The notes under the pieces are model-generated. The model saw only the letters and a program-made list of their open reading frames with translations, did not search any database and was not told where the DNA came from. Below, piece after piece: positions 9,747 through 40,264 of a DNA stretch of 64,000 nucleotides. Source of the stretch: Escherichia coli. GTDB taxonomy: Bacteria; Pseudomonadota; Gammaproteobacteria; Enterobacterales; Enterobacteriaceae. Each line of letters begins with the position of its first letter. Position 1 is the stretch's first letter. Where the stretch lies: assembly GCF_041886205.1 (NCBI RefSeq), contig NZ_CP169029.1; one strand, given 5' to 3'. Made by a program: the position numbers and the translations under genes.

Positions 9747-9845
9747 GCCGGATGCGGCGTGAACGCCTTATCCGGCCTACAAAATCGCGCAAATTCAATA
9801 TATTGCACCATCTTTGTAGGCCTGATAAGCGTAGCGCATCAGGCA
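9747..9845. repeat. REP/BIME palindromic units
   Basis: GCCGGATGCGGCGTGAACGCCTTATCCGGCCTAC ... GCCTGATAAGCGTAGCGCATCAGGC. Confidence 0.75.
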
Positions 9846-27808: not shown

Positions 27809-27885
27809 GGCTACGTAGCTCAGTTGGTTAGAGCACATCACTCATAATGATGGGGTCACAGGTTCGAATCCCGTCGTAGCCACCA
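27809..27885 (+). tRNA. metT: tRNA-Met (elongator, anticodon CAU)
   Basis: 77-nt GGCTACGTAGCTCAGTTGGTTAGAGC...GTAGCCACCA, anticodon loop CTCATAA. Confidence 0.95.
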
Positions 27886-27893
27886 TCTTTTTT

Positions 27894-27978
27894 GCGGGAG
27901 TGGCGAAATTGGTAGACGCACCAGATTTAGGTTCTGGCGCCGCAAGGTGTGCGAGTTCAAGTCTCGCCTCCCGCACCA
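27894..27978 (+). tRNA. leuW: tRNA-Leu (anticodon UAG)
   Basis: 85-nt GCGGGAGTGGCGAAATTGGTAGACGC...CTCCCGCACCA with long variable arm; anticodon loop TTTAGGT. Confidence 0.95.
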
Positions 27979-28001
27979 TTCACCAGAAAGCGTTGTACGG
28001 A

Positions 28002-28076
28002 TGGGGTATCGCCAAGCGGTAAGGCACCGGTTTTTGATACCGGCATTCCCTGGTTCGAATCCAGGTACCCCAGCCA
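28002..28076 (+). tRNA. glnU: tRNA-Gln (anticodon UUG)
   Basis: 75-nt TGGGGTATCGCCAAGCGGTAAGGCACCGGTTTTTGATACCGG...CCCCAGCCA. Confidence 0.95.
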
Positions 28077-28110
28077 TCTTCTTCGAGTAAGCGGTTCACC
28101 GCCCGGTTAT

Positions 28111-28185
28111 TGGGGTATCGCCAAGCGGTAAGGCACCGGTTTTTGATACCGGCATTCCCTGGTTCGAATCCAGGTACCCCAGCCA
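28111..28185 (+). tRNA. glnW: tRNA-Gln (anticodon UUG)
   Basis: Identical copy of the glnU sequence. Confidence 0.95.
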
Positions 28186-28200
28186 TCGAAGAAACAATCT

Positions 28201-28277
28201 GGCTACGTAGCTCAGTTGGTTAGAGCACATCACTCATAATGATGGGGTCACAGGTTCGAATCCCGTCGTAGCCACCA
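28201..28277 (+). tRNA. metU: tRNA-Met (elongator, anticodon CAU)
   Basis: Identical copy of the metT sequence. Confidence 0.95.
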
Positions 28278-28324
28278 AATTCTGAATGTGTCGAATATGT
28301 TCGGCAAATTCAAAACCAATTTGT

Positions 28325-28399
28325 TGGGGTATCGCCAAGCGGTAAGGCACCGGATTCTGATTCCGGCATTCCGAGGTTCGAATCCTCGTACCCCAGCCA
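28325..28399 (+). tRNA. glnV: tRNA-Gln (anticodon CUG)
   Basis: 75-nt TGGGGTATCGCCAAGCGGTAAGGCACCGGATTCTGATTCCGG...; anticodon CTG is wild type (not the supE amber-suppressor allele). Confidence 0.95.
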
Positions 28400-28436
28400 A
28401 TTTATTCAAGACGCTTACCTTGTAAGTGCACCCAGT

Positions 28437-28511
28437 TGGGGTATCGCCAAGCGGTAAGGCACCGGATTCTGATTCCGGCATTCCGAGGTTCGAATCCTCG
28501 TACCCCAGCCA
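28437..28511 (+). tRNA. glnX: tRNA-Gln (anticodon CUG)
   Basis: Identical copy of the glnV sequence. Confidence 0.95.
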
Positions 28512-34058: not shown

Positions 34059-35597
34059 ATGGCTTTTGCCTCATTAATTGAACGCCAGCGCATTCGCCTG
34101 CTGCTGGCGTTAGTATTCGGTGCCTGCGGAACGCTGGCCTTCTCTCCTTACGACGTCTGGCCTGCGGCGATTATTTCGTTGATGGGGCTTCAGGCGTTGA
34201 CCTTTAACCGCCGTCCACTCCAGTCTGCCGCTATTGGCTTTTGCTGGGGATTTGGCCTCTTTGGCAGCGGTATTAACTGGGTCTATGTCAGCATCGCGAC
34301 CTTTGGCGGAATGCCTGGCCCGGTTAACATCTTCCTGGTGGTGCTGCTGGCGGCGTATTTGTCGCTGTATACCGGACTGTTTGCTGGCGTGCTGTCGCGT
34401 CTGTGGCCGAAAACCACCTGGCTGCGCGTAGCGATTGCCGCCCCTGCCCTCTGGCAAGTGACCGAGTTTCTGCGCGGTTGGGTACTGACAGGCTTCCCAT
34501 GGTTACAGTTCGGCTATAGCCAGATTGATGGCCCGTTAAAAGGGCTGGCACCGCTAATGGGCGTGGAAGCCATTAACTTCCTACTGATGATGGTTAGCGG
34601 CCTGCTGGCACTGGCGTTGGTCAAACGCAACTGGCGTCCGCTGGCGGTAGCCGTCGTGCTGTTTGCCCTTCCCTTCCCGCTGCGTTACATCCAGTGGTTT
34701 ACCCCGCAACCGGAGAAAACCATTCAGGTTTCGATGGTTCAGGGCGATATTCCGCAATCGCTGAAATGGGACGAAGGCCAGCTTCTTAATACGCTGAAGA
34801 TTTACTACAACGCAACGGCACCGCTGATGGGCAAATCATCGTTGATTATCTGGCCAGAGTCGGCGATAACCGATCTGGAAATTAATCAGCAACCGTTCCT
34901 CAAAGCACTGGACGGTGAGTTGCGTGATAAAGGTAGCTCGCTGGTAACCGGGATTGTCGACGCGCGTCTCAATAAGCAGAACCGCTACGATACCTACAAC
35001 ACCATCATCACGCTGGGTAAAGGTGCACCGTACAGCTACGAATCAGCCGATCGCTATAACAAAAACCATCTGGTACCGTTTGGCGAGTTTGTCCCGCTGG
35101 AGTCGATTCTGCGTCCGTTAGCACCGTTCTTTGATCTGCCGATGTCGTCGTTCAGCCGTGGGCCATATATCCAGCCGCCGCTGTCGGCAAATGGTATTGA
35201 GCTTACTGCGGCTATTTGCTACGAGATCATTCTCGGCGAGCAAGTGCGCGATAACTTCCGCCCGGATACCGACTACCTGCTGACTATCTCCAACGATGCG
35301 TGGTTTGGTAAGTCTATTGGTCCATGGCAGCACTTCCAGATGGCGCGAATGCGTGCGCTGGAGCTGGCGCGCCCACTGTTGCGCAGCACCAACAACGGCA
35401 TTACGGCAGTGATTGGCCCGCAGGGTGAGATTCAGGCGATGATCCCGCAGTTCACCCGCGAGGTGTTGACCACTAATGTGACGCCAACCACCGGACTCAC
35501 ACCGTATGCACGTACCGGCAACTGGCCGCTGTGGGTGCTGACGGCGCTGTTTGGTTTTGCCGCTGTGTTGATGAGTCTGCGTCAGCGACGTAAATAA
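34059..35597 (+). CDS. lnt: apolipoprotein N-acyltransferase
   Basis: 512-aa [38 protein letters not shown]; multiple TM segments plus nitrilase-like domain. Confidence 0.95.
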
Positions 35598-35642
35598 TCC
35601 CTTCTTATCGTGCCGGAATACATCCCATATTTCGGCACGCTC

Positions 35643-35672
35643 ACCGGATGCGGCATCAGTGCATTATCCGGA
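35643..35672. repeat. REP-like palindromic unit
   Basis: CCGGATGCGGCATCAGTGCATTATCCGG. Confidence 0.55.
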
Positions 35673-35696
35673 TAACAATATTCTCCTATCCAACTT

Positions 35697-35712
35697 TGGC
35701 ACATCTATTGCT
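35697..35712 (+). promoter_or_regulatory. candidate sigma54 (-24/-12) promoter upstream of gltI
   Basis: TGGCAC-N5-TTGCT, exact match to the TGGCAC-N5-TTGCW consensus spacing, about 280 bp upstream of gltI ATG. Confidence 0.45.
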
Positions 35713-35993
35713 TTGTTATACAAGGCAAAGCTTGAACCAGCATCAGTACAACCCGGTTGCACCACAGCAATCCACCGGTAGCACCAAAAGAGTGCATTTT
35801 AAGAATTTTGCTTCGGAATGGTGCGGTGCACCTCGCAAAAACAAACAATAAAACATCAATATCTTTACATTTAGCCAAACTAAATGTTACCTAACAGGCA
35901 CAACACTGCACAATAAAGTTGCAGACAATAACAACACAAACACTCACAACGGGTATCCATGCGTTCTTAACGCAGAAGATAAAGGAGTTGGAT

Positions 35994-36902
35994 ATGCAAT
36001 TACGTAAAACTGCCACAGCAATCCTCGCCCTGGCGCTTTCCGCAGGACTGGCACAGGCAGATGACGCCGCCCCGGCAGCAGGCAGTACGCTGGACAAAAT
36101 CGCCAAAAACGGTGTGATTGTCGTCGGTCACCGTGAATCTTCAGTACCTTTCTCTTATTACGACAATCAGCAAAAAGTGGTGGGTTACTCGCAGGATTAC
36201 TCCAACGCCATTGTTGAAGCAGTGAAAAAGAAACTCAACAAACCGGACTTGCAGGTAAAACTGATTCCGATTACCTCACAAAACCGTATTCCACTGCTGC
36301 AAAACGGCACTTTCGATTTTGAATGTGGTTCTACCACCAACAACGTCGAACGCCAAAAACAGGCGGCTTTCTCTGATACTATTTTCGTGGTCGGTACGCG
36401 CCTGCTGACCAAAAAGGGCGGCGATATCAAAGATTTTGCCGACCTGAAAGGCAAAGCCGTAGTCGTCACTTCCGGCACTACTTCTGAAGTTTTGCTCAAC
36501 AAACTGAATGAAGAGCAAAAAATGAATATGCGCATCATTAGCGCCAAAGATCACGGTGACTCTTTCCGTACCCTGGAAAGCGGTCGTGCCGTTGCCTTTA
36601 TGATGGATGACGCTCTGCTGGCCGGTGAACGTGCGAAAGCGAAGAAACCAGACAACTGGGATATCGTCGGCAAGCCGCAGTCTCAGGAAGCCTACGGTTG
36701 CATGTTGCGTAAAGATGATCCGCAGTTCAAAAAGCTGATGGATGACACTATCGCTCAGGTGCAGACTTCCGGTGAAGCGGAAAAATGGTTTGATAAATGG
36801 TTCAAAAATCCAATTCCGCCGAAAAACCTGAACATGAATTTCGAACTGTCAGACGAAATGAAAGCACTGTTCAAAGAACCGAATGACAAAGCACTGAACT
36901 AA
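35994..36902 (+). CDS. gltI: glutamate/aspartate ABC transporter periplasmic binding protein
   Basis: 302-aa frame from MQLRKTATAILALALSAGLAQA (signal peptide) within track ORF 35919..36902. Confidence 0.95.
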   Translation: MQLRKTATAILALALSAGLAQADDAAPAAGSTLDKIAKNGVIVVGHRESSVPFSYYDNQQKVVGYSQDYSNAIVEAVKKKLNKPDLQVKLIPITSQNRIPLLQNGTFDFECGSTTNNVERQKQAAFSDTIFVVGTRLLTKKGGDIKDFADLKGKAVVVTSGTTSEVLLNKLNEEQKMNMRIISAKDHGDSFRTLESGRAVAFMMDDALLAGERAKAKKPDNWDIVGKPQSQEAYGCMLRKDDPQFKKLMDDTIAQVQTSGEAEKWFDKWFKNPIPPKNLNMNFELSDEMKALFKEPNDKALN

Positions 36903-37058
36903 TTACAAGAACCAGGGGCGGAAATTCTAGCCCTCTCGATTGTTACGTAGCACGGACAGACTATACGCCTGATGGTCGTTCCCCATCGGGCCTGAAAACC
37001 GCAATACGCTGGGTAACAATCTTCGAGGGTAGCAGTTAACGCTGCTACCCTCTTTTTT
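36903..37058 (+). ncRNA. sroC: SroC small RNA (processed from gltI-gltJ spacer)
   Basis: Position between gltI and gltJ with strong intrinsic terminator hairpin; boundaries approximate. Confidence 0.5.
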
Positions 37059-37060
37059 CT
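37025..37060 (+). terminator. rho-independent terminator in gltI-gltJ spacer
   Basis: GAGGGTAGCAG-TTAAC-GCTGCTACCCTC followed by TTTTTTCT. Confidence 0.85.
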
Positions 37061-37071
37061 GGAGTAGATTT

Positions 37072-37812
37072 ATGTCTATAGACTGGAACTGGGGTATTTT
37101 TTTACAACAAGCCCCGTTCGGCAACACCACCTATCTTGGTTGGATCTGGAGTGGTTTTCAGGTGACGATCGCTTTGTCGATCTGCGCCTGGATTATCGCT
37201 TTCCTCGTCGGTTCATTTTTCGGCATTTTACGTACCGTTCCAAACCGTTTTCTCTCCGGTCTGGGTACGTTGTATGTCGAACTGTTCCGCAACGTGCCGT
37301 TGATTGTGCAATTCTTTACCTGGTATCTGGTGATCCCGGAGCTGCTGCCGGAGAAAATCGGCATGTGGTTTAAGGCCGAGCTGGATCCCAACATTCAGTT
37401 TTTCCTTTCATCCATGCTCTGCCTGGGGCTGTTTACCGCCGCCCGTGTTTGCGAACAGGTACGCGCCGCTATTCAGTCGCTGCCGCGTGGGCAGAAGAAT
37501 GCCGCGCTGGCGATGGGTCTGACGCTACCGCAGGCTTACCGCTACGTGCTGTTGCCTAACGCGTATCGCGTTATCGTCCCACCAATGACTTCCGAGATGA
37601 TGAACCTGGTGAAAAACTCCGCCATCGCCTCGACTATCGGTCTGGTGGATATGGCAGCGCAGGCGGGTAAATTGCTCGACTACTCGGCCCACGCCTGGGA
37701 GTCGTTTACCGCCATTACGCTTGCGTATGTGTTGATTAACGCTTTTATCATGCTGGTGATGACGCTGGTTGAACGTAAAGTTCGCCTGCCCGGCAACATG
37801 GGGGGCAAATAA
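37072..37812 (+). CDS. gltJ: glutamate/aspartate ABC transporter permease
   Basis: 246-aa [31 protein letters not shown]. Confidence 0.95.
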
Positions 37813-38486
37813 TGTACGAGTTTGACTGGAGTTCCATTGTTCCTTCCCTGCCATATCTGCTCGACGGGCTGGTGATCACCCTGAAAATCACCGTCACGGC
37901 AGTCGTGATTGGTATTTTGTGGGGTACCATGCTGGCGGTGATGCGCTTGTCCAGCTTCGCGCCTGTTTCGTGGTTTGCCAAAGCCTACGTTAACGTATTC
38001 CGCTCGATTCCTTTAGTCATGGTTTTGCTGTGGTTTTACTTGATTGTGCCGGGATTTCTGCAAAATGTGCTGGGATTATCGCCAAAAAATGATATTCGTT
38101 TAATTTCGGCGATGGTGGCGTTTTCGATGTTTGAAGCGGCCTACTATTCAGAGATTATCCGTGCCGGTATTCAAAGTATTTCTCGTGGTCAGTCGAGCGC
38201 CGCGCTGGCGTTGGGAATGACTCACTGGCAGTCGATGAAACTGATTATTCTGCCGCAGGCGTTCCGCGCGATGGTGCCGCTGCTGCTCACTCAGGGCATC
38301 GTACTGTTCCAGGATACCTCGCTGGTGTATGTGTTATCTCTGGCCGATTTCTTCCGTACCGCCTCAACCATTGGTGAGCGTGATGGTACGCAGGTTGAGA
38401 TGATCCTGTTTGCCGGATTTGTTTATTTCGTTATTAGCCTTAGCGCGTCGTTGTTGGTCAGCTACTTGAAAAGAAGGACAGCATAA
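37812..38486 (+). CDS. gltK: glutamate/aspartate ABC transporter permease
   Basis: 224-aa ORF; ATG overlaps gltJ stop. Confidence 0.95.
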
Positions 38487-39211
38487 TGATTACCCTGAAA
38501 AATGTTTCAAAATGGTATGGTCACTTTCAGGTGCTGACCGACTGCTCAACCGAAGTGAAAAAAGGCGAAGTAGTGGTGGTTTGCGGCCCGTCTGGTTCCG
38601 GCAAATCAACGCTGATTAAAACCGTCAACGGCCTCGAACCAGTGCAGCAAGGTGAAATCACCGTCGATGGTATCGTGGTTAACGACAAGAAAACCGATCT
38701 GGCAAAGCTGCGTTCTCGCGTCGGGATGGTATTCCAACATTTCGAGCTGTTCCCTCATCTGTCGATTATCGAAAACCTGACCCTGGCGCAGGTGAAAGTG
38801 CTTAAACGCGATAAAGCACCGGCTCGTGAAAAAGCATTGAAATTGCTGGAGCGCGTGGGACTTTCCGCACATGCCAATAAATTTCCGGCGCAGCTTTCCG
38901 GCGGCCAGCAGCAGCGTGTGGCGATCGCTCGCGCATTGTGTATGGATCCTATTGCCATGCTGTTCGACGAACCGACATCGGCGCTGGATCCGGAGATGAT
39001 CAACGAAGTGCTGGACGTAATGGTCGAACTGGCGAACGAAGGAATGACCATGATGGTGGTGACCCACGAAATGGGCTTTGCCCGTAAAGTGGCGAATCGG
39101 GTGATCTTTATGGACGAGGGTAAAATTGTCGAAGACTCGCCGAAAGACGCTTTCTTCGATGATCCGAAATCGGACCGCGCAAAAGATTTCCTCGCGAAAA
39201 TCCTGCATTAA
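38486..39211 (+). CDS. gltL: glutamate/aspartate ABC transporter ATP-binding protein
   Basis: 241-aa ORF with Walker [10 protein letters not shown] and ABC signature LSGGQQQR. Confidence 0.97.
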
Positions 39212-39328
39212 TCACTCTGGCGCGCATACCCAATTGCGCGCCATCTCACGCTTTATCGTTTCGCCCCTCGTATCTGTTACATCCTGGCGTTACCCTTGTC
39301 GCAAAGAAGCACACAACAAGGAGCAACA

Positions 39329-40264
39329 ATGGCACTGCCAATTCTGTTAGATTGCGACCCAGGTCATGACGACGCTATCGCAATAGTTCTCGCCCTCGCC
39401 TCACCAGAGCTTGATGTCAAAGCAATTACGTCTTCCGCCGGAAACCAGACACCAGAAAAAACCTTACGCAATGTTCTGCGTATGCTGACCTTGCTTAATC
39501 GCACCGATATTCCGGTAGCAGGCGGTGCGGTAAAACCGTTAATGCGTGAGTTGATTATCGCGGACAATGTGCACGGCGAAAGCGGTCTGGATGGCCCGGC
39601 ATTACCGGAACCGACGTTCGCACCGCAAAACTGTACGGCGGTAGAGCTGATGGCGAAAACGCTGCGCGAAAGTGCGGAACCTGTCACGATTGTGTCTACC
39701 GGACCGCAAACTAACGTTGCCTTGCTGCTCAATAGCCATCCGGAACTGCATAGCAAAATTGCCCGTATCGTGATTATGGGCGGCGCAATGGGGCTGGGTA
39801 ATTGGACGCCTGCGGCTGAATTTAATATTTACGTTGACCCGGAAGCGGCAGAAATTGTCTTCCAGTCAGGGATCCCGGTGGTGATGGCCGGTCTGGATGT
39901 TACTCACAAAGCACAAATCCACGTTGAAGACACTGAGCGTTTCCGCGCGATTGGCAACCCTGTTTCAACCATTGTTGCCGAACTGCTGGATTTCTTCCTC
40001 GAATATCATAAAGACGAAAAATGGGGCTTTGTCGGCGCACCGCTGCATGACCCATGCACCATCGCCTGGCTGTTAAAACCGGAGTTGTTTACCACTGTTG
40101 AGCGCTGGGTTGGCGTGGAAACACAGGGGAAATATACCCAGGGAATGACGATTGTTGATTATTATTATCTGACAGACAATAAACCGAATGCCATCGTAAT
40201 GGTCGATATTGATCGTCAGGGCTTTGTTGATTTACTGGCTGATCGTCTGAAATTTTACGCTTAA
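39329..40264 (+). CDS. rihA: pyrimidine-specific ribonucleoside hydrolase
   Basis: 311-aa frame from [20 protein letters not shown] (DxDxxxDD nucleoside hydrolase motif). Confidence 0.95.

Follow-up and report, generated by a model that had tools for sequence, protein, structure and literature searches.

What does a hairpin followed by a run of T residues do inside the glt operon of Escherichia coli, between the gene for a periplasmic binding protein and the permease/ATPase genes that lie downstream? The answer, about which we have hardly any doubt, is that this spacer is the sroC locus of E. coli with its leaky terminator, and that the RNA ending there is a processed small regulatory RNA (sRNA) that destroys another sRNA, GcvB. 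The window, meaning the whole stretch of 64,000 nucleotides that was analysed, contains the following genes around the spacer:

35994-36902, + strand: gltI, periplasmic glutamate/aspartate-binding protein, whose mRNA is the parent of SroC (open reading frame; RefSeq annotation)
37072-37812, + strand: gltJ, one of the permease/ATPase genes gltJKL (open reading frame; K-12 annotation)
37812-38486, + strand: gltK, likewise of gltJKL (open reading frame; K-12 annotation)
38486-39211, + strand: gltL, likewise of gltJKL (open reading frame; K-12 annotation)

The ATG of gltI was placed at 35994 by means of the 909-nt K-12 gltI coding sequence, and its TAA stop codon occupies positions 36900-36902. 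With the ATG of gltJ at 37072, the spacer runs from 36903 to 37071 and is 169 nt long, and not 170 nt as in a preliminary description of this DNA, which had rightly recognized that it ends in a perfect 11-bp hairpin plus a T-run. The arms GAGGGTAGCAG (37025-37035) and CTGCTACCCTC (37042-37052) are perfectly complementary (11/11 Watson-Crick pairs); on top of these, a U·G pair closes the loop, which consists of the 4 nt UAAC. This makes a terminator hairpin of 12 pairs, 7 of them G-C, with a stability of -21.3 kcal/mol, and six T residues (37053-37058) lie directly 3′ of it. The element is indeed positioned just before the gltJ start, and the "12 nt" originally given for the distance becomes 13 nt when counted from the end of the T-run, or 11 nt from the annotated 3′-end of the sRNA at 37060.

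This is a G+C-rich stem-loop with a U-tract immediately after it, the definition of an intrinsic terminator. In a consensus scan of 35500-39400, no other terminator-like site came close to it in strength, and the full hairpin is present only once in the 64-kb window. A rough calculation gives about 0.1 chance occurrences per 64 kb for a perfect 11-bp hairpin whose loop measures 3-8 nt, and about 1e-5 to 1e-4 for the same hairpin followed by T6. The end of the spacer is thus laid out as follows:

37025-37052, + strand: terminator stem-loop SL3 (SroC nt 128-155), with 11 Watson-Crick pairs, U·G and the UAAC loop (minimum free energy, MFE, fold)
37053-37058, + strand: terminator U-tract (T6 in the sequence), the presumed Hfq-binding 3′ tail, with Hfq binding taken from the literature
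37061-37064, + strand: gltJ Shine-Dalgarno sequence GGAG, just after the U-tract and lying 7 nt ahead of the ATG, conserved in the alignment

Which RNA ends at this terminator? A scan of the whole window with Rfam identified sroC (RF00369) with 170.8 bits (gathering score 45; E = 7e-36), and the match spans model positions 1-163 of 163 without truncation. At the homologous position, 686681-686843, the K-12 MG1655 chromosome is annotated with the "small regulatory RNA SroC" (b4763). The proposed assignment to SroC is borne out on both counts, and the feature reads:

36898-37060, + strand: SroC small RNA, 163 nt (Rfam RF00369; K-12 b4763; fold z = -5.86)

Alignment to the annotated sroC, which had been suggested as a check, gives 162 identical nucleotides out of 163, the single difference being a U for a C at 36928. 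The geometry is also that of K-12 (b4763 relative to b0655 and b0654), with the sRNA overlapping the last 5 nt of gltI and ending 11 nt before the gltJ ATG. The boundaries first offered as approximate, 36903-37071, therefore describe the spacer well and the sRNA poorly, as the latter begins 5 nt inside gltI. For the experimental ends of SroC, the K-12 annotation and later papers served as sources; sroC and gltI are both absent from the main text of a 3′-end mapping paper (PMC7815308).

A 261-nt query located the sroC locus, as a single copy, in 5421 of the 5426 complete E. coli genomes, with many matches at 100% identity; sroC is already known, and the allele in the window is a common one in E. 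coli. The strain behind the window is thus an E. coli other than K-12. Under this match the RefSeq/PGAP annotation lists gltI and gltJ only, so the sRNA is easily missed in most records. As a discovery the locus is unimportant, since sroC is annotated in the K-12 reference, has its own Rfam family and has been the subject of experiments since 2003 and 2015. Its value lies in the annotation of the window, as SroC is a hub regulator whose destruction of GcvB raises the expression of a large regulon of amino-acid transport and metabolism.

SroC is a highly structured molecule. The 163 nt fold with -64.1 kcal/mol (z = -5.86 against dinucleotide shuffles, with 0/200 shuffles as stable), and the MFE structure is made of three elements: a hairpin (nt 18-37), a long stem-loop (nt 41-124) and the terminator (nt 128-155). 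The first two are:

36915-36934, + strand: SL1, small 5′ hairpin (SroC nt 18-37; MFE structure and K-12 alignment)
36938-37021, + strand: SL2, long central stem-loop presenting both GcvB-pairing sites (SroC nt 41-124; MFE structure and covariation)

Homologues were collected by a pattern scan with one genome per species, which gave at least 80 loci among the matches listed, all from Enterobacteriaceae by title except for one mislabelled record (see below). From these, 67 canonical loci plus the window were aligned with MAFFT, making 68 sequences. Because the retrieval pattern fixed the apical loop of SL2, three adjoining pairs and part of the bulge, the invariance of these parts is there by construction.

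On the 68 sequences, RNAalifold again predicted the long stem-loop as well as the terminator, and 13 of 31 pairs show compensatory changes. In the covariation count, 96.5% of cells pair, compared with 37-52% once the partners are slid by 1-3 columns. Two-sided (compensatory) cells number 217, against 76.6 ± 6.6 in shuffles, and 0/500 shuffles reach the observed covariation score. These compensatory changes are concentrated in the stem presenting the apical loop. SL1 was not recovered by RNAalifold on the MAFFT alignment because of gaps; a direct pair count has 88.7% of its cells pairing across the 68 sequences, with weak covariation in this gappy part of the alignment. The only substitution that distinguishes the window from K-12 (36928) lies in SL1, where it turns a G-C pair into a G-U pair.

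The terminator is formed in the full-length MFE of 68/68 homologues, and its U-tail measures 7-9 nt in 64 of the 68. Across 67 distinct sequences, 100% of cells pair in a core of 8 pairs, whose columns are invariant or vary on one side only. There is no compensatory change in this stem, and invariance by itself neither supports nor contradicts it. Stem length is lineage-specific (window 37033-37044, alignment columns 148-160), which explains the poor Rfam alignment over the hairpin. Most genera carry only the 8-pair core, (A)GGGUAGC/GCUACCC(U); compared with these and with Salmonella, the Escherichia stem is longer (12 pairs vs. 8) owing to some 9-10 additional nucleotides in its centre, and Kluyvera is extended in another way.

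Two observations were made in passing among the homologues. The record "Chryseobacterium sp. 18061" (CACSKA010000002.1) contains an enterobacterial gltI-sroC-gltJ locus closely like that of "Citrobacter sp. 18056" (CACSJR010000009.1), from the same project, and the former assembly is probably mislabelled or contaminated. In addition, an imperfect-palindrome repeat of ~100-130 nt is inserted in the sroC region of some Citrobacter, Phytobacter, Yokenella and unnamed Enterobacteriaceae species. It has two insertion points: the interval between the gltI stop and SL1 (loci L026, L036, L037, L070 and L078), and the 3′ half of SL2 (L017, L053, L057 and L077). The repeat is a dispersed intergenic one, with E. 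coli genomes carrying it at a median of 9 places, and presumably resembles the ERIC/IRU elements. The loci that bear it keep the GcvB-pairing sites and the terminator, and the insertions should alter the length or the fold of SroC in those species.

How is such an RNA made, and what does it do? According to Miyakoshi, Chao and Vogel (PMC4474525), gltIJKL has a single promoter and a leaky Rho-independent terminator, from which result a monocistronic gltI mRNA, SroC, and the full operon mRNA. The terminator is conserved and generates the 3′-end of SroC, while the sRNA itself is a 5′-monophosphorylated processing product of the gltI mRNA. Its 5′-end is made by RNase E, both in vivo and in vitro, and correct maturation needs Hfq (PMC4474525). 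Pairing between SroC and GcvB at two short sites then triggers the decay of GcvB by RNase E (PMC4474525). Both biological suggestions of the preliminary description agree with the literature: an attenuation step separating the binding-protein gene from the permease genes corresponds to the published leaky terminator (PMC4474525), and a 3′-derived sponge sRNA is what has been described (PMC4474525; PMC9438474).

What the window itself contains fits this picture. Between 35500 and 39400, the consensus scan picked up no sigma-70-like promoter site on the + strand, which is consistent with SroC being made by processing. The stop and start codons of gltJ, gltK and gltL overlap; from this arrangement, the common strand and the lack of a promoter-like site in the scan, we infer that gltJKL is probably supplied by partial read-through of the terminator. 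The annotated 5′-end of SroC falls between GA and ACU, which, in our reading, does not obviously conform to the RNase E consensus.

Termination, RNase E processing, Hfq dependence and GcvB decay would be carried over to the window from experiments on nearly identical E. coli and Salmonella RNAs, and the course of events would then be as follows. Transcription from the single gltIJKL promoter would meet the leaky terminator (37025-37052 and the U-tract). Terminated transcripts would become monocistronic gltI mRNA, yielding an excess of binding protein, and read-through transcripts would allow gltJKL to be expressed. RNase E decay of the gltI mRNA from the 5′ side would stop at 36898, leaving as a remnant the very stable, Hfq-bound and 5′-monophosphorylated SroC of 163 nt. 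The SL2 loop UCGUUCC would pair with GcvB nt 13-19 and the bulge GGACAGAC with GcvB nt 156-163, upon which GcvB would be degraded by RNase E. Its loss would lift the repression of many amino-acid transport and metabolism mRNAs, and gltI itself would be de-repressed through a C/A-rich site at 35916-35953, making a feed-forward loop.

Since GcvB is not encoded in the window, the K-12 gcvB sequence was used for an exact-complement search and for site-level energies. Accessible perfect complements turned up at two sites only, both in SL2:

36954-36961, + strand: GcvB-pairing site GGACAGAC (SroC nt 57-64, in the bulge), perfect 8-bp complementarity to GcvB nt 156-163 (R3/SL4 region)
36976-36982, + strand: GcvB-pairing site UCGUUCC (SroC nt 79-85, in the SL2 apical loop), perfect 7-bp complementarity to GcvB nt 13-19 (SL1)

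In SroC, 14 nt separate the two sites, in agreement with the published spacing. The core of the GGACAGAC pairing has an energy of -12.6 kcal/mol, which becomes -15.3 once flanks are included, and the columns of this site are invariant in the 68 sequences, partly through the retrieval pattern. The UCGUUCC site has an energy of -9.0 to -10.9 kcal/mol and a mean probability of being unpaired of 1.00. SroC C60 lies opposite GcvB G160, corresponding to the published pair C63G/G160C (the Salmonella numbering being that of E. coli + 3), and C84 lies opposite G14, corresponding to C87G/G14C. Complementarity of this kind is not rare by chance: 18.7% of dinucleotide shuffles of SroC also contain an 8-mer complement to GcvB together with a distinct 7-mer one. 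What establishes the pairing is therefore the published mutational and probing work. It is proved by the compensatory mutations SroC C63G/C87G with GcvB G160C/G14C (PMC4474525). In the prose of that paper the order of the labels BS1 and BS2 along SroC looks crossed relative to the complementarity (PMC4474525), and the sites are for this reason named here by their GcvB partner. The identity of SroC, its fold, its conservation and covariation, its intact pairing sites and the anatomy of its terminator are established here.

Two other results of the pairing search were set aside. A full-length RNAduplex of SroC against GcvB runs end to end with -77.9 kcal/mol, a value that is meaningless as intramolecular structure is ignored. 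A second 8-nt complement, ACCGCAAU (SroC nt 101-108; 36998-37005), to GcvB nt 189-196 in its terminator stem is probably due to chance, because both partners are buried in helices, namely SroC SL2 and the GcvB terminator stem.

The proposed feed-forward loop depends on GcvB acting on the parental mRNA, whose 5′ UTR contains the published target site (PMC4474525):

35916-35953, + strand: C/A-rich GcvB target site in the gltI 5′ UTR (RNAduplex with GcvB R1; site published for the gltI 5′ UTR)

An RNAduplex of 35890-36010 with GcvB nt 61-95 (R1) gives a near-continuous duplex over these positions, with -40.1 kcal/mol, and this target region differs from that of K-12 by 1 nt. The effect of SroC on its target is a strong one. 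In Salmonella, deleting sroC prolongs GcvB's half-life from 1.7 min to >15 min (PMC4474525). In E. coli, SroC lowers it from >16 min to 3.8 min, its own half-life being >16 min (PMC10250213). By RIL-seq, 67,138 GcvB-SroC chimeric reads were counted, making up to ~70% of GcvB chimeras in stationary phase (PMC9299463). SroC has also been reported to act as a sponge of MgrR, with consequences for polymyxin susceptibility, and to repress the flagellar mRNAs fliE and flhBAE in Salmonella (PMC9438474).

Could the hairpin instead stabilise the gltI mRNA passively at its 3′ side, shielding it from 3′ exonucleases in the manner of the REP/BIME elements of malE-malF, involving neither termination nor a functional sRNA? 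This is a common route to differential expression of binding protein and permease in ABC operons (PMC4474525), and a hairpin of -21.3 kcal/mol is certainly very stable. A stabiliser, however, needs no U-tract, and here a tract of 7-9 nt is kept in 64/68 homologues; the 130 nt upstream of the hairpin form a conserved, covarying structure matching an sRNA family. The element is also single-copy, with a median of 1 place per genome over 5421 genomes and a unique occurrence in the window, where a dispersed REP would be repeated. Furthermore, gltI was explicitly contrasted with the stabiliser mechanism in the work that showed the trans-acting function (PMC4474525). We thus consider simple stabilisation very improbable. 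Membership in the REP/BIME group was rejected as well, with no multi-copy repeat and no REP-type hairpin at the site.

That SroC is instead transcribed independently, from a promoter of its own within the 3′-end of gltI, would have precedents, as other sRNAs embedded in 3′ UTRs (DapZ, MicL) do have internal promoters (PMC4474525). Yet no sigma-70-like site is seen on the + strand in 35500-39400, and the published 5′-end carries a monophosphate, coincides with no transcription start site and depends on RNase E in vivo and in vitro (PMC4474525), which leaves next to no room for this origin. We give just as little credit to the idea that the conserved sequence is really an antisense gene for a small protein. 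An open frame of 67 aa with a GTG start does exist on the − strand (36927-37130), but Pfam gives no match to it at E ≤ 1, only 24 of 67 related species retain an antisense open stretch of 67 aa or more, and the frame overlaps the gltJ start in antisense. The substitutions, moreover, are paired compensatory changes in RNA stems and are not codon-like, and the antisense frame is probably spurious. No evidence was found that contradicts the SroC reading.

SroC as found in the window is the same RNA as that of K-12 (b4763) and Salmonella Typhimurium (RF00369), with the same locus, length, ends, fold, two GcvB sites and terminator. It resembles the processed (type II) 3′-UTR sRNAs CpxQ, SdhX, NarS, MalH and OppZ, which are released by RNase E, use the intrinsic terminator of their mRNA, carry a 5′ monophosphate and bind Hfq (PMC9438474; PMC10250213). 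Contrary to these, SroC comes from a terminator internal to its operon and not from the operon end, and its main target is not an mRNA, but another sRNA, for which it acts as a sponge. A functional parallel can be seen in the chbBC spacer that traps ChiX, where an mRNA-derived RNA also pairs with an Hfq-dependent sRNA and lowers its activity, a form of mRNA cross-talk (PMC4474525). In that case pairing opens the ChiX terminator to PNPase, while SroC brings about the cleavage of GcvB by RNase E without being consumed itself (PMC4474525). With the REP/BIME hairpins of malE-malF, the shared feature is an excess of binding protein over the ABC permease subunits. Those hairpins are dispersed repeats that block exonucleases, whereas the hairpin of SroC is unique, is followed by a U-tract and would, by analogy with the published RNAs, act as a leaky terminator.

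What sets the leakiness of this terminator? The segment CCCUC (nt 34-38; 36931-36935), in the 3′ arm of SL1, could base-pair with its complement GAGGG (nt 128-132; 37025-37029), in the 5′ arm of the terminator, which would lengthen SL2 at its base. When nascent transcripts of 135-150 nt are folded, this competing helix is the predicted minimum-energy state, and it loses only once the 3′ arm of the terminator is complete (-56.2 vs. -64.1 kcal/mol at full length). In 64 of the 68 homologues, at least 3 of the 5 nt pair upstream in the nascent MFE. The helix is pairable in 98.3% of alignment cells, and shows no compensatory changes because its columns are almost invariant.

The possibility of regulated termination in the spacer was already raised by others (PMC4474525), and the folding model points to a conserved, antiterminator-like helix that might set the leakiness, or even have it regulated. 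We hold this to be improbable: the evidence permits a role for the competing helix and does not support it. If true, SL1, the competing helix and the terminator would together form a three-way switch tuning SroC and gltI against gltJKL, possibly in response to a trans factor.

Other features of the window deserve a brief mention. In K-12, an IS5 element (IS5D) lies ~105 nt upstream of the gltI ATG, whereas positions 35600-35890 of the window are an uninterrupted lnt-gltI intergenic region; homology to K-12 upstream of gltI resumes at ~35890, at CTAA. As the IS5 is absent, the native gltI promoter region is intact in the window, unlike in K-12. Elsewhere, a match to the Rfam sRNA ES036 (CssrF) at 9781-9823 (+) is barely over threshold, with 40.3 bits against 37.6 (E = 1.2e-4). 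Finally, seven tRNA genes are found at 27809-28511 (+), in the order Met(CAT)-Leu(TAG)-Gln(TTG)-Gln(TTG)-Met(CAT)-Gln(CTG)-Gln(CTG), a cluster that we take to be the E. coli metT-leuW-glnUW-metU-glnVX operon.
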